A DNA stretch of 64,000 bases from contig CAZPAV010000009.1 in assembly GCA_964584755.1 (NCBI GenBank), positions 358 to 64,357 on the forward strand, read 5' to 3'. Below are positions 38,140 through 53,660 of the stretch, one piece after another. Both the position numbers and the translations under genes were made by a program. This stretch comes from an uncultured Acidimicrobiaceae bacterium (GTDB lineage Bacteria; Actinomycetota; Acidimicrobiia; Spongiisociales; UBA5794). Below the pieces are notes generated by a model that was not told where the DNA came from, did no database searches, and saw nothing but the letters and a program-made list of their open reading frames with translations. Position 1 is the stretch's first letter, and each line of letters begins with the position of its first letter.

Positions 38140-39278
38140 CGGGTCAGGATCTGCACCGTGCACGCCGCTCCCTCGATCCCCGCGGCCTTGCCGCCCCGGC
38201 AGTGGGCCATCCCGACCTTGGCGTCGGGGATCTGCCGGTTGCCGGCCTCGCCGCGGAGCTGCTTGACCACCTCCACGACCTGGGCCACGCCGGTGGCGCC
38301 GAGGGGATGACCCTTGCCGAGGAGCCCCCCGCTGGGGTTCACCGGGAGGCGGCCGCCGATGTCGGCCTCGCCACGGGCGACGGCCTCGCCGTACCCGCCG
38401 CGGGGGAAGAGCCCGAGCCCCTCGACGCGCAGCGCCTCGGCGATGGTGAAGCAGTCGTGGACCTCGGTGAAGCGGATGTCCTCCGGACCCACGCCGGCTC
38501 GCTCGTACGCGTCCTGGGCGGTGTTCCAGGTGAGCGGCTCGAAGGTCATCGAGGTCGGCTCGGGGTCCACCGTCCCGCTGCGCAGGGCGGAGGCCGCCAG
38601 GCGGATGGCCCGGCCGTTGCCGTGCCGCTTGACGTACTCGCCGCTGGCGAGGATGACCGCGGCGGCCCCGTCGGAGACCGGCGAGCAGTCGAGGAGGTTG
38701 AACGGCTCCGCGATGGGCCGTGAGGAGAGGACGTCCTCGACGGTGATCTCCTTCTTGAACTGGGCGAGGGGGTTGAGGGCCGCGTTCCGCTTGTTCTTCA
38801 CCGAGATGAGCGCGAGCTGCTCGCGGGTCATCCCGAACTCCTCCATGTAGCGGCGGGCCCGCATGGCGTACACCGCGGGCATGGTGGCGCCCACCGCCGC
38901 CTCGGGGTCGTCGTCGCCGGGGGTGAAGGCCCCGCGGAACTTGCCGGTGAGGTGCTCGACGCCGACGGCGAGCGCAACGTCGAACTCGGCGGCGCGGATG
39001 CCGATGTACGCCTCACGGATGGCGGTCGCGCCGCTCGAGCAGGCGTTCTCCACGTTGGCGAGCGGGATGCCGGCGAGGCCGACCTGGGCGAGGATGCGCT
39101 GGCCCGTCACCATGGGCTGGAAGACGTGTCCGGCGTAGGCGGCCTGGATCTCGCGGGGGTCGATCTCGGCGTCGTGCATGGCGGCGCGCACCGCCTCCGA
39201 GCCGAGATCCGGTGCGTTGCGGTCGGGGTGCTTCCCGAAGGGGGTCATCCCGATCCCGATGACGTAGACGTCGGTCAT
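38136..39278 (-). CDS. bbsB: SCP2-type thiolase, benzoylsuccinyl-CoA thiolase BbsB-like
   Basis: ENACSSG, YAMRARRYM, EVHDCF, GHPLGATG, and C-terminal GGKAAGIEGAACT resembling the recalled BbsB tail. Confidence 0.72.
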   Translation of the reverse strand: MTDVYVIGIGMTPFGKHPDRNAPDLGSEAVRAAMHDAEIDPREIQAAYAGHVFQPMVTGQRILAQVGLAGIPLANVENACSSGATAIREAYIGIRAAEFDVALAVGVEHLTGKFRGAFTPGDDDPEAAVGATMPAVYAMRARRYMEEFGMTREQLALISVKNKRNAALNPLAQFKKEITVEDVLSSRPIAEPFNLLDCSPVSDGAAAVILASGEYVKRHGNGRAIRLAASALRSGTVDPEPTSMTFEPLTWNTAQDAYERAGVGPEDIRFTEVHDCFTIAEALRVEGLGLFPRGGYGEAVARGEADIGGRLPVNPSGGLLGKGHPLGATGVAQVVEVVKQLRGEAGNRQIPDAKVGMAHCRGGKAAGIEGAACTVQILTR

Positions 39279-39279
39279 G

Positions 39280-39720
39280 TCACTCCTCGTCGTCGTTCAC
39301 GGGCCGGAAGCGGTAGCCGACGAGCTGCCGTCCGGCGTCGTCCTCGCCCCAGGGCTCCAGGGAGAGCTCAACGGGCATGCCGATGTGGACGTCCTCCGGG
39401 TCGCACCCGGCGATCTGGCCCATCACCCGGAGCTTCTCGGGGAGATCGACGTACCCCAGGACGTAGGGCACCGCGAACTCCGGGGTCGACTGGCGGACGA
39501 TCGTGAAGGTGTACAGGGTGCCGCGGCGCGAGAGGGGAACGGTCTCGACGTCCTCGGTGAGACACCGGGCGCAGAGCTCGCGCTTGGGGAAGTAGTGGGC
39601 GCCGCAGGAACGGCAGCGGCTGCCGATGAGGTAGCCGGTGCCGTCGCCCTCGACGGCGAGCTCGCCGGGTCGGAAGGACACGGGGCGGGCCGCGGCGTCG
39701 ATCGTGCTGGTCTGGCTCAC
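39280..39720 (-). CDS. bbsA: Zn-ribbon/OB-fold (DUF35) thiolase partner, BbsA-like
   Basis: CRSC...CARC, VPLSRRGTLY, PYVLGYVDLPEKLRV; immediately upstream of the thiolase. Confidence 0.72.
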   Translation of the reverse strand: MSQTSTIDAAARPVSFRPGELAVEGDGTGYLIGSRCRSCGAHYFPKRELCARCLTEDVETVPLSRRGTLYTFTIVRQSTPEFAVPYVLGYVDLPEKLRVMGQIAGCDPEDVHIGMPVELSLEPWGEDDAGRQLVGYRFRPVNDDEE

Positions 39721-39809
39721 AGGGTATCGCCTCCCTCTCTCGATGCGTGGGGGAGCCGTCCGGCCGTTCGGTCGAACAGGGACATCGTCTCGCCCCCGCC
39801 CGGGCGGCG

Positions 39810-39990
39810 TCAATGAGGCAAGCGCACCATTTTACCGATGTATCGGGATCAGCGCATGGCACGATCGGAGGCGACGTCCTGCGGCACCACCGACTCCTGA
39901 TGCAATGGTACCACCGAAATGATGCCGTTCGCGGATTGACCGGACGGTGAGGGGCGACGACGCTGATAACCAACCGACCGGCCGGACGGT
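39810..39990. promoter_or_regulatory. Divergent promoter region with operator-like palindromes
   Basis: Minus-strand TAAAAT (39834-29); CCGATGTATCGG palindrome (39835-46); TGACCGGACGGTGA (39937-50). Confidence 0.5.
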
Positions 39991-40015
39991 AGAGGAGCTC
40001 ACGGGAGGTGACACC

Positions 40016-41266
40016 ATGACGGGCGAGACCGAGGCGGGCCGGGAGCGGCGCCTGCTCCACGACTGGAACGTGGTGGGCGGTGGCCCCGAGCCGGGCGTTC
40101 CCGAGGTGGAGCTCGACGACGAGACGTTGCGGGACGGCCTGCAGAGCCCGTCGGTGCGCTGTCCCAGCCTCGAGGAGAAGATCGAGATCCTCCACCGCAT
40201 GGAGGACCTCGGCATCCAGGCGGTCGACATCGGGTACGCCGGCGCCGGGGAGGCGGTCCTCGCCGACGTGGTCGGCCTCGCCGCGGAGATCGACCGCAAC
40301 GGGATGCGCATCGAGCCGAACTGCGCCGGGCGGACCCACCCCGCCGACATCGACCCCATCGCCGAGGCCCAGCAGCGCGCCGGCGTTCGCATCGAGGCGG
40401 CCCTCTTCCTCGGCTCGAGCCCCATCCGCCAGTACGCCGAGGGCTGGGACCTCGACTTCCTCCTCGAAACCACCGAGAAGGCCGTCGCCCACGCCCGGGC
40501 GCTCGACCTCGACGTCATGTACGTCACCGAGGACACGACCCGGGCCCAACCCGAGGTGCTCCGGCGTCTCTACACGACGGCCATCGAGGCGGGTGCCCGC
40601 CGCATCTGCCTCTCCGACACCGTCGGGCACGCCACCCCGTGGGGCGTGCGAAACCTCGTCCGCTTCGCCCGGGAGATCGTCGACGACACCGGCGAGCCGG
40701 TGAAGATCGACTTCCACGGTCACCGGGACCGTGGGCTCGACATCTCCAACGCGCTCGCCGCTCTCGAGGCCGGCGCCAACCGGGTCCACGGCTGCGCCCT
40801 CGGGATCGGCGAACGGGTCGGCAACGCGGCCATGGACGTCCTCCTCGTGAACCTCCGACTCCTCGGCTGGATCGACGCCGACCTCGCCGCCCTCCCCGCC
40901 TACTGCGAGGCGGTCTCCCGGGCCACCGACACCCCCATCCCCCACAACTACCCGGCGGTGGGGAAGGACGCCTTCGAGACGAGCACCGGGGTGCACGCCG
41001 CCGCGGTCCTCAAGGCCCTCCGTCGGGGCGACACGTGGCTCGCCAACCGGGTGTACAGCGGGGTTCCCGCCGACCTCCTCGGCCGCTCCCAGGTCATCAC
41101 GGTGGGTCCCATGAGCGGCCAGGCCAACGCCGAGGCCTGGCTCTTCCAACACGACATCTCCCCGGAGCCGGACCTCGTGCGGCGCATCGTCGCCGCGGCG
41201 AAGGCCTCCGACACGGTCCTCACCGAGGAGCAGATGATGGAGATCGTGGGAGGCGCCCATGCCTGA
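40016..41266 (+). CDS. DRE-TIM acyltransferase, LeuA/homocitrate-synthase-like, without regulatory domain
   Basis: DETLRDGLQ, EDTTRA, LSDTVG, HGHRDRG, GIGERVGN, GVHAAA. Confidence 0.85.
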   Translation: MTGETEAGRERRLLHDWNVVGGGPEPGVPEVELDDETLRDGLQSPSVRCPSLEEKIEILHRMEDLGIQAVDIGYAGAGEAVLADVVGLAAEIDRNGMRIEPNCAGRTHPADIDPIAEAQQRAGVRIEAALFLGSSPIRQYAEGWDLDFLLETTEKAVAHARALDLDVMYVTEDTTRAQPEVLRRLYTTAIEAGARRICLSDTVGHATPWGVRNLVRFAREIVDDTGEPVKIDFHGHRDRGLDISNALAALEAGANRVHGCALGIGERVGNAAMDVLLVNLRLLGWIDADLAALPAYCEAVSRATDTPIPHNYPAVGKDAFETSTGVHAAAVLKALRRGDTWLANRVYSGVPADLLGRSQVITVGPMSGQANAEAWLFQHDISPEPDLVRRIVAAAKASDTVLTEEQMMEIVGGAHA

Positions 41267-43070
41267 GGTCACCGAGGCGCCGACCGCCGTCACCCGGCTC
41301 CTCCTCTCCGGGAACGAAGCCATCGCCCGGGGCGCCTACGAGGCCGGGGTCCGGGTGGCCTCCGGGTACCCGGGCACGCCGAGCACCGAGATCCTCCAGA
41401 CCCTCGGCCGCGAGGAGGCGGTCGACGTCCGCTGGTCCCCCAACGAGAAGGTGGCGCTCGACGTCGCCCTCGGCGCCTCCTTCGGCGGGGCCCGCGCCCT
41501 CGCCACGATGAAGCACGTCGGCCTCAACGTGGCCGCCGACACCTTCATGACCGCGGCGTACACCGGGGTCGGGGCCGGGCTCGTGATCGTCTCCGCCGAC
41601 GACCCCGGGATGCACAGCTCCCAGAACGAGCAGGACAACCGGTACTACGCCCGCTTCGCCGGGGTGCCCCTCCTCGAGCCGTCCGACAGCGCCGAGGCGA
41701 AGGCCGCCACCAAGCTCGCCTTCGCCATCTCGGAGGAGTTCGACACCCCCGTCCTCGTGCGCACGACGACGCGGGTCTCCCACAACCGCGGCGTCGTCGC
41801 CATCGAGCCCCCCGAGGATCCCCCCGCGGGCGGCTTCCGGCGCAACCCCCAGAAGTACGTCATGCTGCCCGGGCACGCCCGCCGCCGTCACCCCGTCCTG
41901 CTCGACCGCCTCGAGCGGCTCACCCGGTACGTCGAGGAGAGCCCCCTCACCGTCGCGGTGGGCACCGACGACCGGGTCGGGGTCGTCACCGCCGGGATTC
42001 CGTACCACTACGTGCGGGAGGTGCTCCCCGACGCCCGCATCCTCAAGCTGGGGATGAGCTTCCCCCTCCCCGTGGAGCGGATCCGGGAGTTCGCCGCCTC
42101 CGTGGAGCGACTCTTCGTCGTCGAGGAGCTCGAGCCCTTCCTCGAGGACGCGATCCGGGCCGCCGGCATCGCCGTGGAGGGCAAGGCCTTCTTCCCCCGC
42201 ATCGGGGAGCTCACACCCGACATCGTCCACGACGGCTTCGCCCTCGCCGGCGTCCTCCCGCCCCGCACCGCGGTCGACCCAGGGCCGGACACGGTGGTCC
42301 GTCCGCCGCTGCTGTGTCCCGGATGTCCCCACACGGTGCCGTTCCTCGCCCTCAAGCGTCTCGAGGCCACGGTCACCGGCGACATCGGCTGCTACACGCT
42401 CGCCGCGCTCGAGCCGCTCGCCTCCATGGACACCTGTGTCGCCATGGGCGCCAGCATCGGCGCCGCCATCGGCCTCGACGCCAGTGGAGGCGTCGACGGT
42501 CCCATCGTCGCCACGATCGGAGACTCGACGTTCCTCCACGGCGGGATCCAGGGGCTCATGGACGCGGTGTACGCCGACGCCGACATCACCGTGGTCATCC
42601 TCGACAACGGGACGGTGGCGATGACCGGCGGCCAGCCCCACCCCGGGACGGGGGTGACGCTCAAGGGCGATCCGGCCCGGCCGGTCGACATCCCGGCCCT
42701 CTGCCGGGCGCTGGGGGTGGAGGACGTCCACACCGTCGATCCCTACGACGTGGCGGCGACGTTCCGGGCCCTCGAGGCGGCGATCGCCCACCCCGGTCCC
42801 TCGGTCGTCATCACGAACCGGCCCTGCGTCGAGGCGCCTCGGAAGGTGCGGGATCTCCCCTACCGGGTCGAGCTCGCCGACTGCATCGCCTGTCAGGCGT
42901 GCACGACCCTGGGATGCCCCTCCATCGTCTGGGCCGAGGAGACGTACGAGGGACGCCGCAAGGTCGTCATCGACTCGACCACCTGCACCGGCTGCACGCT
43001 CTGCGCCCAGCTCTGCGCGCCGCGGGCCATCGTCCCGGTCGAGCCCGAGGAAGGAGGAGATCGTGGCTGA
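41259..43070 (+). CDS. iorA: Indolepyruvate/arylpyruvate:ferredoxin oxidoreductase alpha
   Basis: LSGNEAIARG, YPGTPSTEI, MKHVGLNVA, SSQNEQD, LCPGCPH, GDIGCY, IGDSTF, two C-terminal 4Fe-4S motifs. Confidence 0.95.
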   Translation: MPEVTEAPTAVTRLLLSGNEAIARGAYEAGVRVASGYPGTPSTEILQTLGREEAVDVRWSPNEKVALDVALGASFGGARALATMKHVGLNVAADTFMTAAYTGVGAGLVIVSADDPGMHSSQNEQDNRYYARFAGVPLLEPSDSAEAKAATKLAFAISEEFDTPVLVRTTTRVSHNRGVVAIEPPEDPPAGGFRRNPQKYVMLPGHARRRHPVLLDRLERLTRYVEESPLTVAVGTDDRVGVVTAGIPYHYVREVLPDARILKLGMSFPLPVERIREFAASVERLFVVEELEPFLEDAIRAAGIAVEGKAFFPRIGELTPDIVHDGFALAGVLPPRTAVDPGPDTVVRPPLLCPGCPHTVPFLALKRLEATVTGDIGCYTLAALEPLASMDTCVAMGASIGAAIGLDASGGVDGPIVATIGDSTFLHGGIQGLMDAVYADADITVVILDNGTVAMTGGQPHPGTGVTLKGDPARPVDIPALCRALGVEDVHTVDPYDVAATFRALEAAIAHPGPSVVITNRPCVEAPRKVRDLPYRVELADCIACQACTTLGCPSIVWAEETYEGRRKVVIDSTTCTGCTLCAQLCAPRAIVPVEPEEGGDRG

Positions 43071-43923
43071 GGACGTGCGGGGGATCCTCCTCGCCGGCGT
43101 CGGTGGGCAGGGGGTCATCATGGCGAGCATGGTGGTCGCCGAGGCGTGCCTCCAGGCCGGCTACGACGTCAAGCAGAGCGAGGTCCACGGCATGGCCCAG
43201 CGGGGCGGATCCGTGTTCAGCCACCTGCGCTTCGGGCCCGAGGTCTCCAGCCCGCTCGTTCCCCTCGGCTCGGCCACCGTCCTGGCGGCCTTCGAGTGGG
43301 CCGAGGGGCTCCGCTGGCTCCCGTACGTCTCCCCCGAGGGGGCGGTCGTCGCCGACGTGCGACGCATCGTGCCCCCCGGCGCCTGCCGGGACCACCGCAC
43401 CTGGGTGGAGACGTACCCCGCCCGCTACGAGCAGGTCCTGCGGGAGCGAGCCGCGGCGGTGCGGCTCCTCGACGCCAGCGCCATGGCGCGTGAGCTCGGG
43501 AACGTCCGGGCGGCGAACAGCGTCGTCCTCGGTGCCGTCGCCAACTTCCTCGACCTCCCCGAGGTGTGCTGGGAGAAGGCGATCGCCCGTCGGGTCCCGC
43601 CGCACACCGTCGACGTGAACCTCGAGGCGTTCCATCTCGGCCGGGAGGCCCCCTCCCTCACGCTGCCCGAGCCGGAGCCACTCCCGCCCGTCCCCACGGG
43701 CTCGCCCCGGATCCATCTCGACCGGTCCTGGTGCAAGGACTGCGGGATCTGCCCCCGGGTCTGCCCCGAGTACTGCCTCGCCATGGACGAGCACGGGCGC
43801 CTGGCGATCGTGGCGCCGGAGGCCTGCACCGGCTGCCGGCTCTGCGAGCTGCTGTGTCCCGACTTCGCCATCACCATCGATCGGGACCCCGTCCCGGTCC
43901 CTGCCGGGAAAGGGGAGCGATGA
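43063..43923 (+). CDS. iorB: IOR beta subunit fused to a C-terminal 2x[4Fe-4S] ferredoxin (KorD-like)
   Basis: GVGGQG, SEVHGMAQRGGSV, NSVVLG, NLEAF..G; then CKDCGICPRVCP and CTGCRLCELLCP. Confidence 0.9.
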   Translation: MAEDVRGILLAGVGGQGVIMASMVVAEACLQAGYDVKQSEVHGMAQRGGSVFSHLRFGPEVSSPLVPLGSATVLAAFEWAEGLRWLPYVSPEGAVVADVRRIVPPGACRDHRTWVETYPARYEQVLRERAAAVRLLDASAMARELGNVRAANSVVLGAVANFLDLPEVCWEKAIARRVPPHTVDVNLEAFHLGREAPSLTLPEPEPLPPVPTGSPRIHLDRSWCKDCGICPRVCPEYCLAMDEHGRLAIVAPEACTGCRLCELLCPDFAITIDRDPVPVPAGKGER

Positions 43924-45068
43924 GCACACCACGGCTCGTTCAGGGCAACGAGGCCTGCGTCCTCGGGGCGCTCGCCGCCGGGTGCCGCTTCTTCGCGGGG
44001 TACCCGATCACCCCCTCGTCGGAGATCGCCGAGCTCATGTCCCGCGAGCTGCCCCGTCGCGGCGGCGCGTTCATCCAGATGGAGGACGAGATCGGATCGC
44101 TCGCCGCCGTCCTCGGCGCCTCTCTCGCCGGGACCAAGGCGATGACCGCCACCAGCGGGCCCGGCTTCTCCCTCATGCAGGAGCACATCGGGTTCGGCGC
44201 CATCGCCGAGATCCCCTGCGTGGTCGTCGACGTCATGCGCGGCGGGCCCAGCACGGGACGGCCCACCTCCCCCTCCCAGGGCGACGTCATGCAGGCCCGG
44301 TGGGGGACGCACGGCGACCACCCCGCCATCGTGCTCGCCCCCGCGACGGTGCGCGAGGTCTTCGACCTGACGGTGCGCGCCTTCGACCTCGCCGAGCGGT
44401 TCCGGATGCCGATCATCCTCCTCTACGACGAGATCCTCGGCCACACCCGGGAGGGGGTGACCCTCCCGAGCGAGGTCGAGACCGTCGAGCGGGTCCGGCC
44501 CACGGTGCCTCCCGAGGAGTTCTGGCCGAAGGCGGCGCCACCCGACGGCGTCCCGCCCCTGCCCGCCTTCGGCGACGGGTACCGCTTCCACGTCACGGGC
44601 CTCACCCACGACGAGCGGGGCTTCCCGACGAACGACGCCGCCGAGGCGGGCGCGCTCATGGAGCGGCTCCGGCGCAAGGTCGAGGACCACCTCGACGAGG
44701 TCCGCGACGTCGAGACCTTCCACACCGAGGACGCCGACGTGGTGGTCTTCGCCTACGGCACGGTGGGCCGGGCGGCACGGGAGGCGGTGGTGCGAGCCCG
44801 GGCCCGCGGCGTGCGGGCCGGGCTGCTGCGGCCCCGCACCCTCTGGCCCTTCCCCGAGGAGGAGGTGGCCGCGCTCGCGGCGCGGACCGGCGCCATCCTC
44901 GTGGCGGAGATGAACCAGGGTCAGCTCCTCCGCGAGGTGGAACGGGCGGCGGGCGGTCGGTGCGAGATCGCCACCCACCTGCGCGCCGACGGGGAGGCCA
45001 TCGTGCCCGCCGAGCTGCTCGAGGTGCTGTCGGCGCGGATCCCGGTCTCGGGAGGAGGTGGCGCATGA
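43920..45068 (+). CDS. korA: 2-oxoacid:ferredoxin oxidoreductase alpha (KorA-like)
   Basis: QGNEAC, FAGYPITPSSEIAE, QMEDEIGS, TATSGPGFSLMQE, RGGPSTG, EMNQGQ. Confidence 0.93.
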   Translation: MSTPRLVQGNEACVLGALAAGCRFFAGYPITPSSEIAELMSRELPRRGGAFIQMEDEIGSLAAVLGASLAGTKAMTATSGPGFSLMQEHIGFGAIAEIPCVVVDVMRGGPSTGRPTSPSQGDVMQARWGTHGDHPAIVLAPATVREVFDLTVRAFDLAERFRMPIILLYDEILGHTREGVTLPSEVETVERVRPTVPPEEFWPKAAPPDGVPPLPAFGDGYRFHVTGLTHDERGFPTNDAAEAGALMERLRRKVEDHLDEVRDVETFHTEDADVVVFAYGTVGRAAREAVVRARARGVRAGLLRPRTLWPFPEEEVAALAARTGAILVAEMNQGQLLREVERAAGGRCEIATHLRADGEAIVPAELLEVLSARIPVSGGGGA

Positions 45069-45886
45069 TCGACGTTCGAACCTACCTGCGCGAGTGGGCG
45101 ATGCCTCACGTCCTCTGTCCCGGGTGCGCCCACGGCATCGTCCTCCACGGGCTCCTCGAGGCCATCGACCGACGCGGGCTCGACCGCGACGAGGTGGCGA
45201 TGGTCGCCGGGATCGGGTGCAGCAGCCGGCTCGTCGGCTACGTCGACTTCTGCACGCTGCACACCACCCACGGGCGGGCTCCCGCGTTCGCCACCGGCCT
45301 GAAGCTCGCCCGTCCCGAGCTCACCGTCATCGTCATCTCCGGGGACGGGGACGGGCTCGCCATCGGGGGCAACCACCTCATCCACGCCGCGCGCCGCAAC
45401 GTGGACATCACGGTCCTCCTCTTCAACAACGCCATCTACGGGATGACCGGAGGGCAGGTGGCGCCGACGACCCCCCGCGGCGCCATCGCCACCACGGCCC
45501 GCGCCGGCAACACCGAGCCACCCTTCGACCCCTGCCGGCTCCTCGTGGGTGCCGGTGCCTCCTTCGTGGCTCGCGCCATGGCCGCCGAGCCCCTGAAGAT
45601 GGCCGACATCGTGGAGCAGGCCCTCGCCCACCGTGGGTTCTCCTTCATCGAGGTCGTCAGCGACTGCCCCGAGTACTTCGGTCGCTACAACAAGCTGGGT
45701 CGCGGCGCGGAGCTCCTCTCCCTCATGACCCGGCGCGACGAGCGGATCGCCGGACCGCTCGCCGCCAAGGCGTCGGTGCCGCACGTGCCGGCGCCCGAGC
45801 TCCTCGACGGCCTCGAGCTGGGGATCCTCCATCGGGAGGAACGGCCGGTCTTCACCGGGCGAGGGGCGGGAGGAGGCGGACGATGA
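45065..45886 (+). CDS. korB: 2-oxoacid:ferredoxin oxidoreductase beta (KorB-like)
   Basis: CPGCAHG, GIGCSSR, HGRAPAFATG, GDGDGLAIGGNH, NNAIYGMTGGQ. Confidence 0.93.
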   Translation: MIDVRTYLREWAMPHVLCPGCAHGIVLHGLLEAIDRRGLDRDEVAMVAGIGCSSRLVGYVDFCTLHTTHGRAPAFATGLKLARPELTVIVISGDGDGLAIGGNHLIHAARRNVDITVLLFNNAIYGMTGGQVAPTTPRGAIATTARAGNTEPPFDPCRLLVGAGASFVARAMAAEPLKMADIVEQALAHRGFSFIEVVSDCPEYFGRYNKLGRGAELLSLMTRRDERIAGPLAAKASVPHVPAPELLDGLELGILHREERPVFTGRGAGGGGR

Positions 45887-46425
45887 GCCGCCGCCTCGAC
45901 CTGCGTCTCGCCGGGGCCGGCGGCCAGGGCGTCGCCCTCGCCGGCCGCATCCTCGCCGAGGCGGCGTTGCGCTCAGGGCGCGAGGCCGCCTACTCGCAGG
46001 CGTACGGGCCCGCCTCCCGGGGCGGGGCCAGCCACGCCGACGTCGTGATCGCCGCAGGCGAGATCGGCTGGCCCCTCGCCGAGTCCATCGGCGTGCTCGT
46101 CGCGGTTTCGGGGGCGGCGTACGCGAAGTACGCTCCCGGGGTGGAAGCCGGGACGACGGTCGTCGCCGACACCGAGGCGATCGACCCCGAGACCCCCACC
46201 GCGGGGACCCTCCGCTCCTTCCCGATCGTGGCCACGGCCCGGCGGATCGGCGGGGGGCCGATCCTCAGCGGCGTGGTCGCCCTCGGGGTCCTCCAGGGCC
46301 TCGTCGGCCTCGTCGACGAGGCCGCCCTCGAGGAGGCGCTCGCCTCTCGGGTCCCGTCCGACCGGCGCGAGATGAACCTGCGCGCCCTGGCCGAGGGGCG
46401 CCTGCTGGCGAACGGAGGTCGATGA
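45883..46425 (+). CDS. korC: 2-oxoacid:ferredoxin oxidoreductase gamma (KorC-like)
   Basis: AGAGGQGV, SQAYGPASRGG, MNLRALAEG. Confidence 0.88.
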   Translation: MSRRLDLRLAGAGGQGVALAGRILAEAALRSGREAAYSQAYGPASRGGASHADVVIAAGEIGWPLAESIGVLVAVSGAAYAKYAPGVEAGTTVVADTEAIDPETPTAGTLRSFPIVATARRIGGGPILSGVVALGVLQGLVGLVDEAALEEALASRVPSDRREMNLRALAEGRLLANGGR

Positions 46426-47036
46426 TGACCGTCGAGGCGACCGAGGCCACCGCGGACGTCGGGACGGGCGAGCGCATCCGGCGTGCCGCCGCCGCGCTCT
46501 TCCGGGAGAAGGGCTTCAACGGGACGAGCATGGCCGACCTCGCCGCCGCGGTCGGCATCACGAAGTCGAGCCTGTACCACCACTTCTCCTCGAAGCAGGC
46601 GCTGCTCCTCGAGATCCTCGAGCTCACCGTCGACCGGGTGACCCCGGCGTTGCGGGCCGTAGCCGAATCGGAACGACCCGCCACCGAGCGGCTCCGCCGG
46701 GCGGTCGTCATGCACGTCGTCGAAGGGCTCCGCGACCGGGACAACCTCGCCTGCTTCGTCGAGGAGGGCCGGTACCTCGAACCGGCGTACATGGAGGCGT
46801 ACGTCGCCAAGCGCGACCGCTACGAGCACTACGTGCGCCGCATCATCCGCGACGGCATCGCCTCGGGCGAGTTCCGTCCCGTCGATCCCCGCCTCACCGC
46901 GATGGCCATTCTCGGCATGGCGAACTCGGCGGTTCGCTGGTACCGGCCGGAGGGCGACTACACGCCGGAGGAGATCGGGGCGTCGTTCGCCGAGCTCGTC
47001 GTCGACGGGCTCCTCGCCGGAGGCGCCCCCACATGA
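46422..47036 (+). CDS. TetR/AcrR family transcriptional regulator
   Basis: [33 protein letters not shown]; C-terminal WYRP. Confidence 0.93.
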
Positions 47037-48256
47037 GCGGCGCGCTGGCGGGCATCCGGATCCTGGATCTCTCCCAGGGCGCGGCCGGGCCCATCGCCAC
47101 CATGTTCCTCGGCGACCTCGGTGCCGAGGTCGTCAAGGTGGAACCACCGGGAGGGGAGTGGGGCCGGGGACTCGGTCCGCCCTTCCTCGGGGGGACCGCG
47201 GCGGCCTTCGTGGGGATGAACCGCAACAAGCGGGGCATCGTCGTCGACCTGAAGCGCCCCGGTGGCAGCGAGGTGGTGGCCCGCCTCGCCGAGGGGTGCG
47301 ACGCCATGCTGGAGAGCTTCCGTCCCGGCGTCGCCGACCGGCTCGGCGTCGGGTACGCCGCGCTCTCCCCGCGCAACCCTCGCCTCGTCTACGCGACGAT
47401 CTCGGCCTTCGGTCAGGAGGGCCCGTGGCGGAACCGCCCCGGGGTCGACGGCATCGTGCAGGCGGTCGGGGGGATCATGAGCGTCACCGGGACCGAGGAC
47501 GGGACCCCCGTCAAGGTGGGGGTGCCCGCCGCCGACATGGTCGCCGGGATCTTCGCCTCCCAGGCGATCGTCGCCGCCCTCTACGCCCGGGAGCGGACCG
47601 GCGCCGGCCAGCGCGTCGACCTCTCCCTCCTCGAGTCGCTCCTCGCCTTCCAGGTCGTGCCCCTCTCCATGTACCTCGCCTCGGGACGGCCGCCTCGTCG
47701 CATGGGGAGCGCCGCGCCGTACTCGGCGCCCAACGAGGCCTTCCGCACCGCCGACGGGTGGATCCAGGTCGCCGCCTACACGCCCCGTCGCTGGCCGGCC
47801 CTGTGCGCCGTCCTGGGGCGTCCCGAGCTCGCCACCGATCCCCGCTTCGACACGAACGCCGGGCGCGTCGAGCGACGGGGGGAGCTCCACGCCGAGCTGG
47901 AGGCGGCGTTCGCGACCCGCACGACGAAGGAGTGGCTCGCCGAGCTCGAGGCGGTCGACGTCCTCTGCGGGCCGATCCTCTCCTACCCGGAGCTCCTCGC
48001 CGAGGACCACCTCGCCCGGATCGACGCCCTCCCGACCTTCACCCAGCCCGGCGTGGGGGAGCTGCGGGCGGTGCGGAACCCGGCCCGCTTCTCCGATACC
48101 GGGGCGGTGCACCGGCGGCCCGCGCCGTTGCGTCCCGGGGAGGACACCCGCGAGGTGCTCGCCGCCGCCGGGTTCGCCGCCGACGAGATCGCCGAGCTCG
48201 TGGCCCGGGGCGTCGTCTCCGCGCCCGAGGAACCGAACGGAAAGGAGGAGCCGTGA
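47033..48256 (+). CDS. Family III CoA-transferase (CaiB/BaiF)
   Basis: [39 protein letters not shown] with catalytic Asp, APNEAFRT. Confidence 0.93.
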
Positions 48257-49068
48257 CGACCGCCGGCACCAGCTCGAACGCCCCCGAGGCGCCGGTCCTG
48301 TGGGAACGGGACGGCGCGGTGGGGATCATCACCCTCAATCGTCCGCAGGCGCTCAACGCCCTCACCGTCGAGATGCTCGAGACGATGGAGCGGATCGTCG
48401 CCGACGCGGAGGGGGACCCCGACCTGCGGGTGCTCGTGCTCACCGCCTCGGGCGAGAAGGCGTTCTGCGTCGGCGCCGACCTCAAGGCCCGCGCCGCCGA
48501 GTACGAGGCGGGTACGGTGCACGACCCGCTCGGGGACCTCATCCGCCGGGTCCAGCGACGGTTCGAGACGAGCGACAAGCCGATCATCGCCGCCCTCTTC
48601 GGCTACGTCCTCGGCGGGGGCCTCGAGATGGCCCTCGCCTGTGACCTGCGAGTGGCCACCGAGGGGGCCCAGCTCGGCTTCCCGGAGGCGCGGGTGGGGA
48701 GCATGCCGGGGGTGGGGGGCACTCAGCGGACGACGCGACTCGTCGGCGCGTCCCGGGCGAAGGAGCTCATGTTCACCGGGGAGCGGATCCGCGCCGAGCA
48801 GGCCCTGCAGTGGGGGCTCGTCAACCGGGTCGTGCCCGAGGGCACGCTCATGGAGGCGACCCGGGAGCTCGCCGGGAAGGTCGCGGCGAACGCGCCGCTG
48901 TCGCTGGGGCGCATCAAGGCGGCGGTGAACCGGGCGGCGGACGTCGATCTCGACACCGGGCTCGCGTTCGAGGCGATGTGTCACGCCGTGCTCAGGCACA
49001 GCGAGGACCGCAAGGAGGGTATCCAGGCCTTCGTGGACAAGCGGAAGCCCGTGTTCAAGGGTCGTTGA
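48253..49068 (+). CDS. Enoyl-CoA hydratase (two catalytic Glu)
   Basis: [40 protein letters not shown]. Confidence 0.92.
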
Positions 49069-49081
49069 GGAGGTCGAGAAG

Positions 49082-49816
49082 GTGAACGTCAGCAATCGGG
49101 TCGCGATCGTGACCGGGGCCGGCCAGGGGATCGGCGAGGGGATCGCGCGCGCCTTCGCGGCGCGCGGGGCGAAGGTCGTCGTCAACGACGTGGTCGCCGA
49201 CCGTGCCGCGGCGGTGGCCGAGGACCTCGGGGGGAACGGGGTGGCGATCCCCGCCGACATCTCGGTGGCGGAGGGGGCGAACGAGCTCGTGGCGAAGGCC
49301 ACCGAGGCCTTCGGCCAGGTGGACGTGCTCGTGAACAACGCCGGGATCTCCCGCCCCGGGTACGTGGCGAAGATGAGCGACGAGGACTGGGAGAGCGTCC
49401 TCAAGGTGAACCTCACCGCCCAGTTCCTCACCTGCCGGGCCGTCATCCCCCAGATGATGGAGCGGAAGTGGGGCCGGATCGTCAACATCTCCTCCCGGGC
49501 GTGGCTCGGGGGGGCGGGACAGGCGAACTACTCGGCGTCGAAGGGCGGCGTCGTCAGCCTCACCCGCAGCCTCGCGCTCGAGCTCGCCCGCTTCGGGATC
49601 ACGGTGAACGCCGTCGCCCCCGCGCTCGTCGACACCCCGCTCTTCCAGGGCCTCAAGGACGAGATCAAGGAGAAGCTGGTGAAGACGATCCCGATGCGCC
49701 GGGTGGGGACGCCAGACGACATCGCCAACGCGGTGCTCTTCTTCGCGGCCGAGGAGTCGGCGTACGTCACCGGCCAGCTCCTGTACGTCTGCGGCGGCCG
49801 TAGCCTCGGGGCGTGA
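49082..49816 (+). CDS. SDR, resembling BbsD (2-[hydroxy(phenyl)methyl]succinyl-CoA dehydrogenase)
   Basis: NRVAIVTG, GRIVNISSRAWLGGAGQANYS, PDDIAN, VTGQLLYVCGGRSL. Confidence 0.85.
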   Translation: MNVSNRVAIVTGAGQGIGEGIARAFAARGAKVVVNDVVADRAAAVAEDLGGNGVAIPADISVAEGANELVAKATEAFGQVDVLVNNAGISRPGYVAKMSDEDWESVLKVNLTAQFLTCRAVIPQMMERKWGRIVNISSRAWLGGAGQANYSASKGGVVSLTRSLALELARFGITVNAVAPALVDTPLFQGLKDEIKEKLVKTIPMRRVGTPDDIANAVLFFAAEESAYVTGQLLYVCGGRSLGA

Positions 49817-49832
49817 CCACGGGGACGACGCC

Positions 49833-51092
49833 ATGGGCATGACCGTCGCGGAGAAGATCCTCGCCCGGGCCTCGGGCCGGGCGTCCGTGCGCGCCGGGGA
49901 GTTCGTCGTCGCCGAGATCGATCTGGCGATGACCCACGACATCTTCGCGGCGACGGTCTTCGACGCCCTGCTCGACCTCGGCCGGGAGAAGGTGTTCGAC
50001 CCGGCGAAGGTCGCGGTCGTCATCGACCACCTCGTCCCCGCGCCGTCCGCCCAGGCGGCGGCGATCCACCATCGCATCCGGGAGCACGTCGAGCGGTTCG
50101 GGATCGGGATCTTCTACGACGCCGGGGAGGGCATCTCGCACCAGCTCCTCCCGGAGCGGGGCCACATCCGACCCGGGATGCTCGTGGTCGGAACGGACTC
50201 CCACACCACCACCTACGGTGCGCTCGGTGCCGCGGGGACGGGCGTGGGCACGTCCGACATGGTGTACGCGCTCGCCACCGGGCGGCTCTGGTTCCGGGTT
50301 CCCGAGACCATCCGCTTCGAGCTCGCCGGCGCCCTCGAGCCGCTCGTCTCCTGGAAGGACGTCGTGCTCGCCATCGCGGGGCGGATCGGGAGCGACGGTG
50401 CCCAGTACCGGGCCCTCGAGTTCGGTGGGCCCGGCGTGGCGTCGGCGCCGGTCTCGGGCCGTCTCACGGTGGCGAACATGGCCGTCGAGCTGGGGGCGAA
50501 GTTCGGGATCTTCCCCGCCGACGAGTGCACCTTCGCGTACCTCGGGGAGGAGACCCCGGGGGCGCCACGGCCCGATCCGGACGCGGCGTACCTCACCGTC
50601 GAGGAGCTCGAACTCGCCACGCTCGGACCGCAGGTGGCGCTCCCCTCCGACGTCGACCGGGTGACGGCGGTGCGGGACGCGGAGCCGGTACGGATCGACC
50701 AGGCGTTCCTCGGGTCCTGCACCAACGGGCGGCTCGACGACCTCCAGGCCGCCGCCGCCATCCTCCGGGGGCGGAAGGTCGCCCCGGGGGTGCGACTCCT
50801 CGTGGCCCCGGCGTCCCGCCGCGTCCTCGAGGCGGCGCTCGCCGACGGGACCGTCGCCACGCTCGTCGCGGCGGGCGCCACGCTCCTCGCCGCGGGGTGC
50901 GGGCCCTGCTTCGGCGGCCACGGCGGGCTCCTCGCTCCCGGCGAGCGATGCGTCTCGACGAGCAATCGGAACTTCGTGGGACGCATGGGATCCCCCGCGG
51001 CCGAGATCTACCTCGCCTCGCCCGCCACCGTGGCCGCCTCGGCGGTGGCGGGGCGGCTCGTCGACCCCAGGGAGGTGCAGGATGGCCGCTGA
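49833..51092 (+). CDS. leuC: LeuC/HacA-family hydro-lyase large subunit
   Basis: DHLVP, GTDSHT, FLGSCTNGR, GCGPCFG, STSNRNFVGRMG. Confidence 0.92.
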   Translation: MGMTVAEKILARASGRASVRAGEFVVAEIDLAMTHDIFAATVFDALLDLGREKVFDPAKVAVVIDHLVPAPSAQAAAIHHRIREHVERFGIGIFYDAGEGISHQLLPERGHIRPGMLVVGTDSHTTTYGALGAAGTGVGTSDMVYALATGRLWFRVPETIRFELAGALEPLVSWKDVVLAIAGRIGSDGAQYRALEFGGPGVASAPVSGRLTVANMAVELGAKFGIFPADECTFAYLGEETPGAPRPDPDAAYLTVEELELATLGPQVALPSDVDRVTAVRDAEPVRIDQAFLGSCTNGRLDDLQAAAAILRGRKVAPGVRLLVAPASRRVLEAALADGTVATLVAAGATLLAAGCGPCFGGHGGLLAPGERCVSTSNRNFVGRMGSPAAEIYLASPATVAASAVAGRLVDPREVQDGR

Positions 51093-51579
51093 CGTCGTGC
51101 GGGGCCGGGCCTGGTGCTTCGGTGACGACATCAGCACCGACCTGCTCTCGCCGGGGGCGTACGCGGTCGATCCCGTCGAGGTCCGGAAGCTCCACGTCCT
51201 CGAGTCGGTGAACCCGTCCTTCGCCGCCGAGGTCCGACCCGGGGACGTGGTGGTGGCCGGGAGGAACTTCGGCTGTGGCTCGAGCCGGGAGACGGCGCCG
51301 GAGAACCTCGCCGCGCTCGGCGTCTCGTGCGTGGTCGCCTCGTCGCTGGCCCGCATCTTCCTGCGCAACGCCGTGGCGATCGGTCTCCCCGTGCTCATCT
51401 GCCCCGGCGTCGACGCCGCGGTCCACGACGGAGACGAGGTGGAGGTCGACCTGGGCGCGGGGACCGTCCGGGTGCTGCCCGACGGCCCGACGCTCCGAGG
51501 GGAGGGTCTCCCCGAGGCGATGCGGGAGATCCTCGCCGCCGGCGGCATCCTCGCCGTGCTCCGCTCCGGAGAGGGGTGA
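51082..51579 (+). CDS. leuD: LeuD/HacB-family hydro-lyase small subunit
   Basis: FGDDISTD, AGRNFGCGSSRE, ARIFLRNAVAIGLP. Confidence 0.92.
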   Translation: MAADVVRGRAWCFGDDISTDLLSPGAYAVDPVEVRKLHVLESVNPSFAAEVRPGDVVVAGRNFGCGSSRETAPENLAALGVSCVVASSLARIFLRNAVAIGLPVLICPGVDAAVHDGDEVEVDLGAGTVRVLPDGPTLRGEGLPEAMREILAAGGILAVLRSGEG

Positions 51580-51603: not shown

Positions 51604-51637
51604 TTGACGCGCGAGTATTCTGACCGTATGGTCAGAA
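51604..51637 (+). promoter_or_regulatory. Sigma70-type promoter with overlapping palindromic operator
   Basis: TTGACG(51604-09)-N17-TATGGT(51627-32); palindrome TTCTGACC-GTAT-GGTCAGAA (51618-37). Confidence 0.8.
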
Positions 51638-51677: not shown

Positions 51678-52349
51678 ATGGCGGTGACCCTCCCCGGGGA
51701 CGGGACCCTGACGGATCTCCTCGAGGTCCTCGGTCGCACCGCGGACGCGATGATCGCCGTCGACGGCGATCTGCGCATCGTGGCCTGGAACGACGCGGCG
51801 ACCGAGCTGCTCGGGTTCAGGCCCGAGGAGGCGCTCGGCCGGCCCTGCCACGAGGTCCTCGCCTGGGTCGACCGGTGCGGGGATCCGGTCTGCGACGCCG
51901 ACTGTCCCGCCTCCTGCCCCGGCGAGCCCGACGAGCTGGTGCGGACCCGCGACGTCATGGGTCGTTCCCGGACGGGCCGGCGTCTCTGGCTGAGCGCCAC
52001 GACGATCGTGCCCCCGCCGGAGCTCCGGGACCGGTGCCGCCTCATCCACCTCGTCCGTGAGGTGGGCCTCCCCCCCGAGCTCGAGCGGCTCCTCGCCGAG
52101 CGGCTCGGTGGTCTCCTGGAGCCGCCGGAGCGTCCCCGCGACGAGTTCGCCGAACGGCTCGCCCGCCTCACGCCACGTGAGCGGGAGGTGCTCGGCCTCC
52201 TCACCGAGGGCCTCGACGGTGCCACGATCGCCGAGCGCCTCTATCTGTCACGCACCACGGTGCGCAACCACGTCCAGCACATCCTCAACAAGCTCGAGGT
52301 CCACAGCCGGGTCGAGGCGGTCGCGCTCGCCCTCCGCTCCACCTCCTGA
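51678..52349 (+). CDS. PAS-domain plus LuxR-HTH transcriptional regulator, Cys-rich PAS
   Basis: AMIAVD...WNDAATELLG PAS start; LTPREREVL...TTVRNHVQHILNKL. Confidence 0.9.
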   Translation: MAVTLPGDGTLTDLLEVLGRTADAMIAVDGDLRIVAWNDAATELLGFRPEEALGRPCHEVLAWVDRCGDPVCDADCPASCPGEPDELVRTRDVMGRSRTGRRLWLSATTIVPPPELRDRCRLIHLVREVGLPPELERLLAERLGGLLEPPERPRDEFAERLARLTPREREVLGLLTEGLDGATIAERLYLSRTTVRNHVQHILNKLEVHSRVEAVALALRSTS

Positions 52350-52395: not shown

Positions 52396-52439
52396 ACTCG
52401 GCGGCGACCATGGGCGCTCGTCGAGCGAGGAGGGGATCG

Positions 52440-53636: not shown

Positions 53637-53660
53637 GGTCGGCGGGAGGAGGGAGCAACG

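Follow-up and report, generated by a model that had tools for sequence, protein, structure and literature searches.

A conserved gene cassette joining a LeuA-like synthase and LeuCD to Bbs-like enzymes in uncultured bacteria, with a candidate anaerobic route from arylpyruvates to aroyl-CoA

To our knowledge, it is only in a few denitrifiers that the anaerobic conversion of C6-C3 and C6-C2 aromatic acids (tyrosine, phenylalanine, and phenylacetates) to benzoyl-CoA is understood. In these organisms a molybdoenzyme of the membrane is employed, and the side chain is given off as CO2. Enzymes related to those treated here also occur in the Bbs system for benzylsuccinate beta-oxidation, in the Mii/DmdAB pair of Eubacterium barkeri, and in the LeuABCD and Hph routes. 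We describe a gene cassette in 64,000 nucleotides of DNA from an uncultured Acidimicrobiaceae bacterium (contig CAZPAV010000009.1 of assembly GCA_964584755.1, positions 358 to 64,357; hereafter the window), in which a LeuA-like synthase, LeuCD, and an isomerase resembling Mii accompany a CoA-transferase, a crotonase, a short-chain dehydrogenase/reductase (SDR), and a thiolase with its DUF35 partner. The cassette is conserved, is built from known enzyme kinds, and is undescribed in the searchable literature: full-text searches returned no catabolic benzylmalate, benzylmaleate, or phenylitaconate route with an anaerobic or benzoyl-CoA context, no such cassette, and nothing relevant on methylitaconate with a thiolase or CoA-transferase, or on isopropylmalate synthase with 4-hydroxybenzoyl-CoA reductase. 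A paper on UBA5794 Acidimicrobiia merely lists bbsA and bcrBC as “toluene degradation”.

Organization and conservation of the cassette

Gene limits in the window, whose G+C content is ~73%, were set by third-position G+C and frame plots. Twelve plus-strand genes (40016–51579) either overlap or are separated by no more than 16 bp (junctions in order: -8, -8, -4 six times, +13, +16, and -11), and therefore form one translationally coupled operon, with the LeuA-type synthase first and LeuC and LeuD last (Table 1). A first-pass annotation of the window had described this layout correctly: a 416-aa synthase without the regulatory domain opens the operon, LeuCD close it, and a PrpF-family gene (E-value 9e-103 in our scan) stands in the divergent operon. 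It had also noted the lack of a beta-decarboxylating dehydrogenase, and we found no isocitrate/isopropylmalate-dehydrogenase gene in the operon or the 64-kb window, either with the Iso_dh Pfam model on the scanned called genes or with a PROSITE-type Iso_dh motif in six frames (no match in the window, and one true match, in L080, among the 86 related loci considered below). Not part of that annotation were the Bbs-like thiolase/DUF35, SDR, crotonase, and CoA-transferase in the same conserved unit, the indolepyruvate type of the first oxidoreductase, and the canonical CimA described below.

Well over 100 homologues of the synthase, 67–79% identical to it, bear generic names only (e.g. “LeuA family protein”). 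In a scan of one genome per GTDB species, relatives of the synthase are encoded in at least 238 species-level genomes; the best 80 matches all come from metagenome-assembled genomes (MAGs), mainly of Acidimicrobiia and also of Thermoleophilia/Gaiellales, Armatimonadota, Chloroflexota, and Acidobacteriota. We mapped 18 window proteins onto 86 related loci, and a core set (synthase, LeuCD, Mii-like isomerase, CoA-transferase, crotonase, SDR, and thiolase/DUF35) co-occurs at 45–85% identity in ~60 of them, in four gene orders. The loci with this core set all belong to uncultured Acidimicrobiia, Thermoleophilia, Armatimonadota, and Chloroflexota, and usually lie within benzoyl-CoA-pathway clusters. 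Type I is the arrangement of the window; type II lacks the oxidoreductase genes IorAB-KorABC, which are missing from L030, L034, L042, L044, L055, L060, and L069; type III, from Thermoleophilia, has its two halves swapped; and in type IV, from Armatimonadota and Chloroflexota, LeuC-LeuD come just before the synthase and DUF35-thiolase after the SDR. LeuCD is directly upstream of the synthase in L054, L065–L068, L071–L074, L077, and L086. Since gene content is kept through these rearrangements, there is strong reason to hold that the seven activities work together, and since the same set recurs in dozens of independent MAGs, the juxtaposition of the genes is not a matter of chance; we consider it very probable that the cassette is a single functional unit. 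IorAB/KorABC and an Hcr-type enzyme are frequent but dispensable companions.

Part of the cassette also occurs by itself. A cluster equivalent to its back half is found in Cupriavidus necator N-1 pBB2 (L087, 122539–129283) and Variovorax paradoxus CP063167 (L089, ~822900–828595), in the order DUF35–thiolase–SDR–CoA-transferase–crotonase–TTT-type binding protein–Mii-like isomerase, with proteins 41–53% identical to those of the window. Because neither cluster has a synthase or LeuCD, this module appears to take a ready-made substituted maleate or itaconate, and the cassette's back half could be studied conveniently in these two clusters. On the Yersinia ruckeri IncFII plasmid p17Y0159.1 (L088, 5635–8093), an aconitase-family fragment, a LeuD-like gene, and a PrpF-family gene adjoin; their proteins are 39–47% identical to the window LeuC, LeuD, and isomerase.

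The first-pass annotation had proposed that the cassette is catabolic rather than leucine-biosynthetic, and of this we are confident, given the missing regulatory domain, the catabolic gene setting, and the separate CimA gene. The first-pass annotation had suggested a check for separate canonical leu-type genes in the genome, and the window answers it in part with a biosynthetic synthase: CimA (56350–57963, minus strand; 537 aa), 5 kb downstream of the operon, has HMGL-like, HCS_D2, and LeuA_dimer domains, scores 659 bits against a TIGR00977 cut-off of 450, and is only 29% identical to the operon synthase. CimA is thus a canonical regulated citramalate synthase, a separate biosynthetic family member in the same genome, and the operon synthase is a divergent paralogue among catabolic genes. 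CimA implies a pyruvate route to isoleucine, and hence LeuCD/LeuB-type enzymes elsewhere in the genome.

A proposed route through the cassette

Taken in order, the seven activities would make up a route in which each step is covered and each enzyme put to use, by which a 2-oxo acid R-CH2-CO-COOH would be shortened to R-CO-CoA and the remaining carbons captured as succinate. R would most likely be aryl, the substrate being 4-hydroxyphenylpyruvate or phenylpyruvate from tyrosine, phenylalanine, or arylacetates. The synthase would join acetyl-CoA and arylpyruvate to 2-(4-hydroxy)benzylmalate (step 1), which LeuCD would dehydrate to benzylmaleate without having to finish the isomerization that LeuB would pull (step 2); the Mii-like isomerase would shift the double bond to give benzylidenesuccinate (phenylitaconate), as in the interconversion of dimethylmaleate and methylitaconate (step 3). 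A class III CoA-transferase would then form the CoA thioester with succinyl-CoA as donor (step 4), the crotonase would hydrate benzylidenesuccinyl-CoA (step 5), the BbsD-like SDR would oxidize the alcohol (step 6), and the BbsAB-like thiolase/DUF35 pair would cleave the product to (4-hydroxy)benzoyl-CoA and succinyl-CoA (step 7). The net reaction would be arylpyruvate + acetyl-CoA + NAD+ + H2O -> aroyl-CoA + succinate + NADH. Such a route leaves the leucine-type sequence at the maleate stage, which explains the absence of LeuB, and takes its double bond from dehydration and isomerization, which explains the absence of a BbsG-type acyl-CoA dehydrogenase; among the scanned window genes and the recurrent neighbour clusters we found neither an acyl-CoA dehydrogenase nor a glycyl-radical enzyme (benzylsuccinate synthase). 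For each cassette enzyme, the closest characterized relative performs the type of reaction assigned to its step.

The sole Pfam domain of the synthase is HMGL-like (residues 31–285, E-value 4.5e-43), and the C-terminal LeuA_dimer allosteric (leucine-binding) domain is missing from its 416 aa. The protein scores under all NCBIfam cut-offs for LeuA, NifV, CimA, and homocitrate synthase (HCS; best 187 bits vs 517), and indeed all 19 of its 19 NCBIfam family matches are under their own cut-offs. It is ~30% identical to solved isopropylmalate synthase (IPMS) and HCS structures and has the DRE-TIM barrel and post-barrel catalytic His expected of a LeuA relative, with R39-D40, the HxH metal site (H234/H236), and the catalytic H327 conserved in alignment with 3RMJ. 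We mapped pocket positions through alignments to 3RMJ, 6KTQ, and 3A9I; the comparison with other synthase families is by signature residues, with the HphA residues taken from Table 1 of PMC12961565. Five positions are thought to select the 2-oxo acid (PMC12961565, Table 1), and hold Leu/Glu/Ser/Asn/Glu in IPMS, His/Arg/Thr (or Ser)/Ser/His in HCS, and Ala73/Asp157/Ala159/Met186/Ser242 in the benzylmalate synthase HphA, in which Ala73 is decisive for selecting aromatic 2-oxo acids (PMC12961565). The operon synthase has Ala104/Met168/Val170/Cys198/His258 at these positions, a signature essentially invariant across the 86 loci (Ala104 in 86 of 86). The IPMS set is not matched, and the HCS set is matched only at the fifth position (His258), with Ala for His, Met for Arg, and Val for Thr, whereas the decisive HphA Ala has its counterpart in Ala104, the residue that stands opposite Leu of IPMS and His of HCS in the alignments. 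Our search for literature on the roles of HCS His72 and Arg133 yielded no confirmation. The synthase also has Ala129 where IPMS has the His of its IHTF strand, a position with Ser, Cys, or Gly in most homologues. Ala104, Ala129, and the lack of the HCS His/Arg/Thr together point to an enlarged and hydrophobic pocket, which would disfavour oxaloacetate, 2-oxoglutarate, and 2-oxoadipate, and hence Re-citrate synthase activity too.

The closest homologue from a cultured organism, in Streptomyces sp. KN37, is 44% identical and has the same A104/V170/C198/H258 signature. On a plasmid of that strain (L090, 401904–406172), the gene for this short LeuA-family protein adjoins genes for a fused LeuCD and a LeuB-type dehydrogenase, within a polyketide synthase/nonribosomal peptide synthetase (PKS/NRPS) cluster in which a pair of crotonyl-CoA carboxylase/reductases is also encoded. 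These genes probably serve to elongate a 2-oxo acid on the way to an unusual extender unit, and this chain-elongation context favours a condensing synthase over a lyase.

LeuC and LeuD are an aconitase-family large subunit and a separate small subunit, as in other LeuCD-type enzymes. LeuC passes the hacA/IPMI subfamily cut-offs (NF001614, 544 bits vs 385), has the cluster-cysteine motifs GSCTNG and GCGPC (three cluster cysteines), and scores 415 bits against the Methanocaldococcus jannaschii isopropylmalate/citramalate isomerase as compared to 355 against homoaconitase; LeuD scores 165 bits with TIGR02087 (“LeuD/DmdB family”; cut-off 109), while neither the LEU2 nor the leuD equivalog cut-off is passed. 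Aligned with 3VBA (YLVY, isomerase), 2PKP (YLRT, homoaconitase), and 1V7L, the LeuD specificity loop is short and hydrophobic, Y-A-V-(2-residue deletion)-D-P, and lacks Arg, and so fits neither the isopropylmalate isomerase nor the homoaconitase pattern; it is kept in 22 of the 22 homologues examined, none of which has Arg. The PrpF-family protein is closest to Mii (3G7K, 321 bits, 49% identity over 359 aligned residues), ahead of PrpF (221 bits) and LigU (207 bits), and conserves the catalytic Lys (TSKLA) and Cys (NCGN) of the Lys62/Cys96 pair; its substrate is predicted only. The first-pass proposal that a PrpF-family enzyme and a LeuCD-type pair carry out maleate/itaconate chemistry here is well supported by these matches.

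The closest relatives of the remaining enzymes were found by sequence search against all solved structures. The CoA-transferase (CoA_transf_3, E-value 5.6e-128) is closest to SUGCT and formyl-CoA transferase (256 bits), and is 47% identical to the enzyme of the Cupriavidus necator pBB2 module. The crotonase (ECH_1, E-value 6.5e-67) has both catalytic Glu motifs, GGGLEMA and FPEAR. For the SDR, which has the YxxxK motif, BbsD (7PCS_B) is closest at 245 bits, compared to ~201 for FabG; for the thiolase, BbsB (7PXP_C) is closest at 298 bits, compared to 247 for SCP2 thiolases; and the DUF35 protein is closest to BbsA (7PXP_A, 82.7 bits). The thiolase gene adjoins that of the zinc-ribbon/OB-fold DUF35 protein, the pairing seen in BbsAB.

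Several observations favour an aromatic substrate: IorA passes the equivalog cut-off for indolepyruvate:ferredoxin oxidoreductase (IOR), the thiolase, Mii-like, and Hcr genes share one operon here and in ~25 loci, Ala104 of the synthase occupies the HphA A73 position, the LeuD loop is shortened, hydrophobic, and devoid of Arg, and benzoyl-CoA-pathway genes surround the cassette. With R as 4-hydroxyphenyl, the predicted product, 4-hydroxybenzoyl-CoA, would be the substrate of the co-transcribed Hcr-type reductase, which would remove the phenolic hydroxyl, leaving ring breakdown to the neighbouring genes for benzoyl-CoA reductase and ring hydrolysis. Hcr models are the best NCBIfam matches for all three subunits, all under the equivalog cut-offs: HcrC-like, TIGR03193, 168 bits vs 258; HcrA-like, TIGR03194, 862 vs 995 (the best match by far); and HcrB-like, TIGR03195, 277 vs 405. 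The HcrB-like protein has ~40 extra residues within FAD_binding_5 that include Cys120, Cys136, Cys144, and Cys153, presumably the Cys-rich [4Fe-4S] insertion typical of 4-hydroxybenzoyl-CoA reductase, as in the Thauera structure. Across the loci, Had and Oah, each scoring above its equivalog cut-off, and a Dch-like hydratase are the other neighbours met most often, and several type IV loci have a PaaK-like ligase and an ABC transporter upstream of LeuC (the ligase adjoins LeuC in L065 and L074).

In the window itself, a benzoyl-CoA module (14797–24448) comprises a BetI/TetR-type regulator, a BadH-like SDR (15456–16199), two family I CoA-transferase-like genes (16211–17949), an Oah/BadI-like crotonase (17831–18796), four BcrABCD-like genes of the BcrA/D and BcrB/C kinds (18881–23154, all under equivalog cut-offs), and a PaaK-type ligase (23153–24448).

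The two 2-oxoacid:ferredoxin oxidoreductases of the operon lie outside the core chemistry, since type II cassettes do without them. IorA exceeds the TIGR03336 IOR_alpha equivalog cut-off (683 bits vs 651), while IorB is just under its own (216 vs 237) and combines a POR domain (residues 14–195) with a Fer4 domain (217–272) that matches OorD (1.4e-11) and OGOR_delta (4.4e-10); both Cys motifs of this fusion are conserved in 46 of 54 homologues. KorA scores 555 bits with NF006412 (cut-off 411) and is under the cut-off of the 2-oxoglutarate synthase alpha model (416 vs 579), and the best NCBIfam match of KorB is the 2-oxoglutarate:ferredoxin oxidoreductase beta subunit (274 vs 364). KorABC thus shows the OorABC subunit pattern without a delta subunit of its own, an OorD-like domain being found instead on IorB, directly upstream of KorA; the fusion may form a physical link between the two enzymes. 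One option is that arylacetyl-CoA is reductively carboxylated to arylpyruvate by these enzymes, the oxidation of 2-oxoglutarate providing the electrons, a coupling at which the fusion would hint; methanogens and rumen bacteria are known to carry out reductive carboxylation that depends on IOR. The other is that IorAB/KorABC would supply reduced ferredoxin to the Hcr/Bcr aryl-CoA reductases, as the 2-oxoglutarate:ferredoxin oxidoreductase of Thauera does. In its boldest form the proposal becomes an anaerobic “de-homologation” pathway, in which an IorAB-OorDABC supercomplex would carboxylate arylacetyl-CoA with 2-oxoglutarate electrons channelled via the fusion, and the resulting arylpyruvate would go to (4-hydroxy)benzoyl-CoA and succinyl-CoA; we regard this extension as speculative and rather unlikely.

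Several points weigh against the aromatic route. Homology and gene linkage are the basis for substrate, direction, and every step. Among the five specificity positions of HphA, the synthase agrees at one, the other four being Met/Val/Cys/His; the CoA-transferase is nearer the SUGCT type than BbsEF (152 and 135 bits); and the NCBIfam equivalog cut-offs are far from reached by the BbsA-like (95 bits vs 250) and BbsB-like (314 vs 750) proteins. In Acidobacteriota/Thermoanaerobaculia MAGs (L075–L085, type V), a synthase of 57–59% identity with the same signature occurs without LeuCD, Mii-like, or Bbs-like genes; these contexts vary, and in L076, L078, and L079 the synthase is near a 3-hydroxyacyl-CoA dehydrogenase, two crotonases, and a biotin carboxylase, surroundings in which one would expect an enzyme resembling 3-hydroxy-3-methylglutaryl-CoA (HMG-CoA) lyase. 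IorAB, if oxidative, would compete for arylpyruvate within the same operon, and the two oxidoreductases come directly after the LeuA-like gene. The window Hcr could equally serve the adjacent phenol/4-hydroxybenzoate genes. The sequence was found in hydrothermal-vent and microbial-mat metagenomes, and the only metatranscriptome from a sample holding it (X6) gave just spurious ~20-nt matches, which is no evidence either way. On balance, our confidence in the full model, by which arylpyruvate would be converted to aroyl-CoA and succinate without oxygen, is evenly poised.

Alternative readings

The same chemistry might act on an aliphatic 2-oxo acid, since the scheme works for any R-CH2-CO-COOH. 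For example, 2-oxobutyrate (formed from propionyl-CoA by an oxidoreductase) with acetyl-CoA could yield ethylmalate, then ethylidenesuccinate, and finally acetyl-CoA and succinyl-CoA, which if true would be a B12-independent route from propionate to succinate; or 2-oxoadipate, from the benzoyl-CoA pathway's glutaryl-CoA, could yield two succinyl-CoA. The affinity of the CoA-transferase to succinate-glutarate (SUGCT-type) enzymes fits this reading, as do the absence of a glutaryl-CoA dehydrogenase among the scanned window genes and the position of the proteobacterial back-half modules beside TTT-type carboxylate-binding proteins and not aromatic genes. However, tricarboxylate intermediates, such as 2-oxoadipate or 2-oxoglutarate would give, are unlikely with a LeuD loop that lacks the homoaconitase Arg and a synthase with Met/Val in place of the HCS Arg/Thr, and a small substrate would leave the enlargement of the pocket (Leu to Ala at A104, His to Ala at A129) unexplained, and with it the IOR-type oxidoreductase and the operon link to Hcr. 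We judge an aliphatic substrate unlikely.

Alternatively, the pathway could run in reverse, with the LeuA-like protein acting as a lyase like R-citramalyl-CoA lyase or HMG-CoA lyase. A substituted itaconate or maleate would be isomerized by the Mii-like enzyme, hydrated to an alkylmalate by LeuCD, activated by the CoA-transferase, and cleaved by the LeuA-like protein to acetyl-CoA and a 2-oxo acid, which IorAB or KorABC would oxidize; the placement of both oxidoreductases immediately behind the LeuA-like gene suits this order. HMG-CoA lyases also carry the RDGLQ motif, Chloroflexus pairs HMGL-family lyases with class III CoA-transferases, and Mii and DmdAB of E. barkeri run from itaconate through maleate to malate; a weak hint in the same direction comes from the Acidobacteriota protein near leucine-catabolism-like genes. 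Yet the alignment of the synthase with the Claisen-condensing IPMS and HCS spans the entire protein, post-barrel subdomains and GxH catalytic His included, while it aligns only marginally with HMG-CoA lyase (E-value 4e-8 over 85 residues), and its nearest cultured homologue lies in an elongation cassette with LeuCD and LeuB. Moreover, the equally conserved crotonase, BbsD-like SDR, and BbsAB-like thiolase would be left without a role. The lyase direction thus seems distinctly improbable, and we continue to prefer condensation by the synthase.

A pathway like nicotinate fermentation, with Mii/DmdAB-type enzymes acting on methylitaconate and dimethylmaleate, was the context that the first-pass annotation had invoked, and the proximity of the PrpF homologue to Mii and the match of the small subunit to a “LeuD/DmdB family” model are in keeping with it. 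That context does not hold up: 2-methyleneglutarate mutase, enamidase, dimethylmalate lyase, and hydroxymethylglutarate enzymes are all missing from the window and related loci, the molybdoenzyme belongs with 4-hydroxybenzoyl-CoA reductase rather than nicotinate dehydrogenase, and the neighbours are those of the benzoyl-CoA pathway, so that we hold this reading to be very improbable. Hardly more credible is a biosynthetic 2-oxo-acid chain elongation (leucine, isoleucine, or Hph-like) with the SDR in LeuB’s place. The LeuA and LeuCD families are classically biosynthetic, and the 44%-identical Streptomyces homologue sits in a biosynthetic cluster, but a regulated CimA is nearby, the operon synthase has no regulatory domain, the operon is set in catabolic surroundings, with CoA-transferase, crotonase, and thiolase genes but no aminotransferase, and a beta-decarboxylating dehydrogenase is absent from 85 of the 86 loci. 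Finally, a Re-citrate synthase with a LeuCD-type aconitase making 2-oxoglutarate for KorABC, the alternative offered by the first-pass annotation, is highly improbable: short LeuA-like proteins without the regulatory domain do include Re-citrate synthases and KorABC is most similar to 2-oxoglutarate enzymes, but the window lacks isocitrate dehydrogenase (Iso_dh scan), no basic residue for a distal carboxylate is present in the LeuD loop or in the synthase pocket as judged via the HCS residues (Ala/Met/Val vs His/Arg/Thr), LeuCD is nearer isopropylmalate/citramalate isomerase than homoaconitase or aconitase, the cassette persists without KorABC in several lineages, and six other conserved enzymes would be unexplained.

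Genomic setting and comparison with known systems

Two gene starts in the divergent operon were revised. The longest open reading frame (ORF) of the DUF35 gene, reaching to 39813, is an overcall, and its start is most likely GTG 39720, which has a GGGAGG ribosome-binding site and gives 146 aa, matching homologues; the longest ORF for HcrA (34030–36753) is likewise an overcall, with the start most likely at ATG 36423, which overlaps the HcrC stop codon. The TetR-family regulator keeps its operon position in related loci. This regulator may have its operator at a perfect palindrome, CCGATGTATCGG, located at 39835–39846 where the divergent intergenic region is richer in A+T, and a GGTACC site lies at 39907 in the same region. 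Neither these intergenic palindromes nor scans for terminators and promoters yielded a decisive signal.

Table 1. Genes and intergenic region of the LeuA-like/LeuCD operon and the divergent operon in the window
Feature	Coordinates	Strand	Basis
LeuA-family 2-alkylmalate synthase without regulatory domain, 416 aa; proposed (4-hydroxy)benzylmalate synthase	40016–41266	+	HMGL-like domain
IorA, indolepyruvate(arylpyruvate):ferredoxin oxidoreductase alpha, 603 aa	41259–43070	+	TIGR03336; POR_N, TPP_enzyme_C, Fer4
IorB with fused C-terminal 2x[4Fe-4S] ferredoxin domain (OorD/KorD-like), 286 aa	43063–43923	+	POR, Fer4
KorA/OorA-type 2-oxoacid:ferredoxin oxidoreductase alpha, 382 aa	43920–45068	+	NF006412
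KorB/OorB beta (thiamine diphosphate) subunit, 273 aa	45065–45886	+	TPP_enzyme_C
KorC/OorC gamma subunit, 180 aa	45883–46425	+	POR domain; gamma and OorC model matches
TetR-family regulator inside operon, 204 aa	46422–47036	+	TetR_N, TetR_C_24
Class III CoA-transferase, 407 aa; proposed succinyl-CoA:(aryl/alkyl)idenesuccinate CoA-transferase	47033–48256	+	CoA_transf_3
Crotonase-family enoyl-CoA hydratase, 271 aa	48253–49068	+	ECH_1
SDR, 244 aa; proposed 2-(alpha-hydroxybenzyl)succinyl-CoA dehydrogenase	49082–49816	+	BbsD 7PCS_B closest solved
LeuC-type hydro-lyase large subunit, 419 aa	49833–51092	+	Aconitase family
LeuD/DmdB-type small subunit, 165 aa	51082–51579	+	TIGR02087
Divergent intergenic region (putative promoter/operator) between both operons	39721–40015	.	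Gene starts
DUF35/OB-fold zinc-ribbon protein, BbsA-like	39280–39720	-	zf-ChsH2, OB_ChsH2_C
SCP2-type thiolase, BbsB-like, 380 aa; proposed aroylsuccinyl-CoA thiolase	38136–39278	-	BbsB 7PXP_C closest solved
PrpF-family Delta-isomerase, Mii-like, 375 aa; proposed benzylmaleate <-> benzylidenesuccinate isomerase	37036–38163	-	Mii 3G7K
HcrC-like [2Fe-2S] subunit of 4-hydroxybenzoyl-CoA-reductase-type molybdoenzyme	36420–36920	-	TIGR03193
HcrA-like molybdopterin subunit	34030–36423	-	TIGR03194
HcrB-like FAD subunit with Cys-rich insertion	33059–34033	-	TIGR03195

Between the benzoyl-CoA module and the Hcr genes are phenol-type carboxylation genes (24989–31861, plus strand), which are unusual for an actinobacterial genome: UbiX (24989–25552), an IclR regulator (25705–26481), a UbiD protein (26429–27946) closest to the phenylphosphate carboxylase beta subunit (425 bits vs 469), a HAD phosphatase (27847–28803), and homologues of PpsB (28800–29891) and PpsA (30041–31861), which resemble phosphoenolpyruvate synthase and phenylphosphate synthase. 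We considered these phenol genes as the sole reason for the link to Hcr and rejected the idea, as Hcr follows the Mii-like gene in ~25 other loci. A PAS-LuxR regulator (51678–52349, plus strand) comes directly after LeuD, with a promoter-like site (51604–51632) ahead of it, and is followed by amtB-glnK-glnD (52410–56344, plus strand), a conserved actinobacterial nitrogen operon. The other flank (543–14794) holds housekeeping genes (alanine racemase, S58 peptidase, UDG-family glycosylase, tsaE, tsaB, tsaD, M50 peptidase, and groES-groEL), together with an ATP-grasp L-amino-acid-ligase-like gene (9332–10735), NifU-like and GNAT genes, and a pyridoxal-phosphate-dependent decarboxylase (13286–14794). 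The order tsaE-tsaB-tsaD-groES-groEL in this flank, like the nearest relatives of the sequence, indicates an Acidimicrobiia-like actinomycetote.

If true, the proposed pathway would be a new route put together from leucine-, nicotinate-, and toluene-type enzymes, one that needs no high-potential electron acceptor and keeps carbon as succinate, and it would provide new enzymes to make or degrade benzylmalate, benzylidenesuccinate, and related dicarboxylates. It would alter how automatic annotations such as “bbsA/bbsB = toluene degradation” and “leuA/leuCD = leucine synthesis” are read in sediment metagenomes. The de-homologation version, if true, would replace the molybdenum-dependent alpha-oxidation by PadBCD/PadEFGHI, bypass the Bbs acyl-CoA dehydrogenase step, and deliver all side-chain carbon to succinate in hundreds of uncultured sediment and vent lineages.

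Among the closest known systems is benzylsuccinate beta-oxidation in anaerobic toluene degraders (BbsEF, BbsG, BbsH, BbsCD, and BbsAB), which shares with the cassette a DUF35 protein with SCP2-type thiolase, an SDR, a crotonase, and a class III CoA-transferase; for three cassette proteins the nearest solved structures are those of BbsA, BbsB, and BbsD, and the predicted products, aroyl-CoA and succinyl-CoA, are the same. The cassette differs in lacking benzylsuccinate synthase and the acyl-CoA dehydrogenase BbsG, in having one SDR in place of BbsC and BbsD and one SUGCT-nearer CoA-transferase in place of BbsE and BbsF, and in the proposed origin of its benzylidenesuccinate, which would come from a 2-oxo acid via the LeuA-like, LeuCD, and Mii-like enzymes. 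With Mii/DmdAB of E. barkeri the cassette shares a PrpF-family isomerase and a LeuCD-type hydro-lyase that interconvert itaconate-, maleate-, and malate-type dicarboxylates, yet its proposed direction is opposite (from malate to maleate to itaconate type), its substituent differs, it would start with a synthase and finish with a thiolase in place of dimethylmalate lyase, and the other nicotinate genes are absent. LeuABCD and the HphA/HphCD/HphB route to homophenylalanine and homotyrosine likewise combine a Claisen-condensing synthase with a LeuCD isomerase, and HphA has the Ala73 position in common with the cassette synthase, whereas the cassette lacks LeuB/HphB and the regulatory domain and would end in an acyl-CoA that has been shortened, where those routes yield a lengthened 2-oxo acid.

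The Cupriavidus pBB2 and Variovorax clusters have a homologous back half with an adjoining Mii-like gene, but lack the synthase, LeuCD, the oxidoreductases, and Hcr, belong to aerobic hosts, and include a TTT-type binding protein that suggests uptake of an external dicarboxylate. The PadBCD and PadEFGHI route for phenylalanine and phenylacetate would have the same start and end as the cassette (arylpyruvate or arylacetyl-CoA to benzoyl-CoA), and both employ an enzyme of the 2-oxoacid:ferredoxin oxidoreductase family. The cassette has no PadBCD-type membrane molybdoenzyme, however, and its oxidoreductases match PadE, PadG, and PadI weakly; where the Pad route loses carbon as CO2, the cassette would conserve it as succinate.

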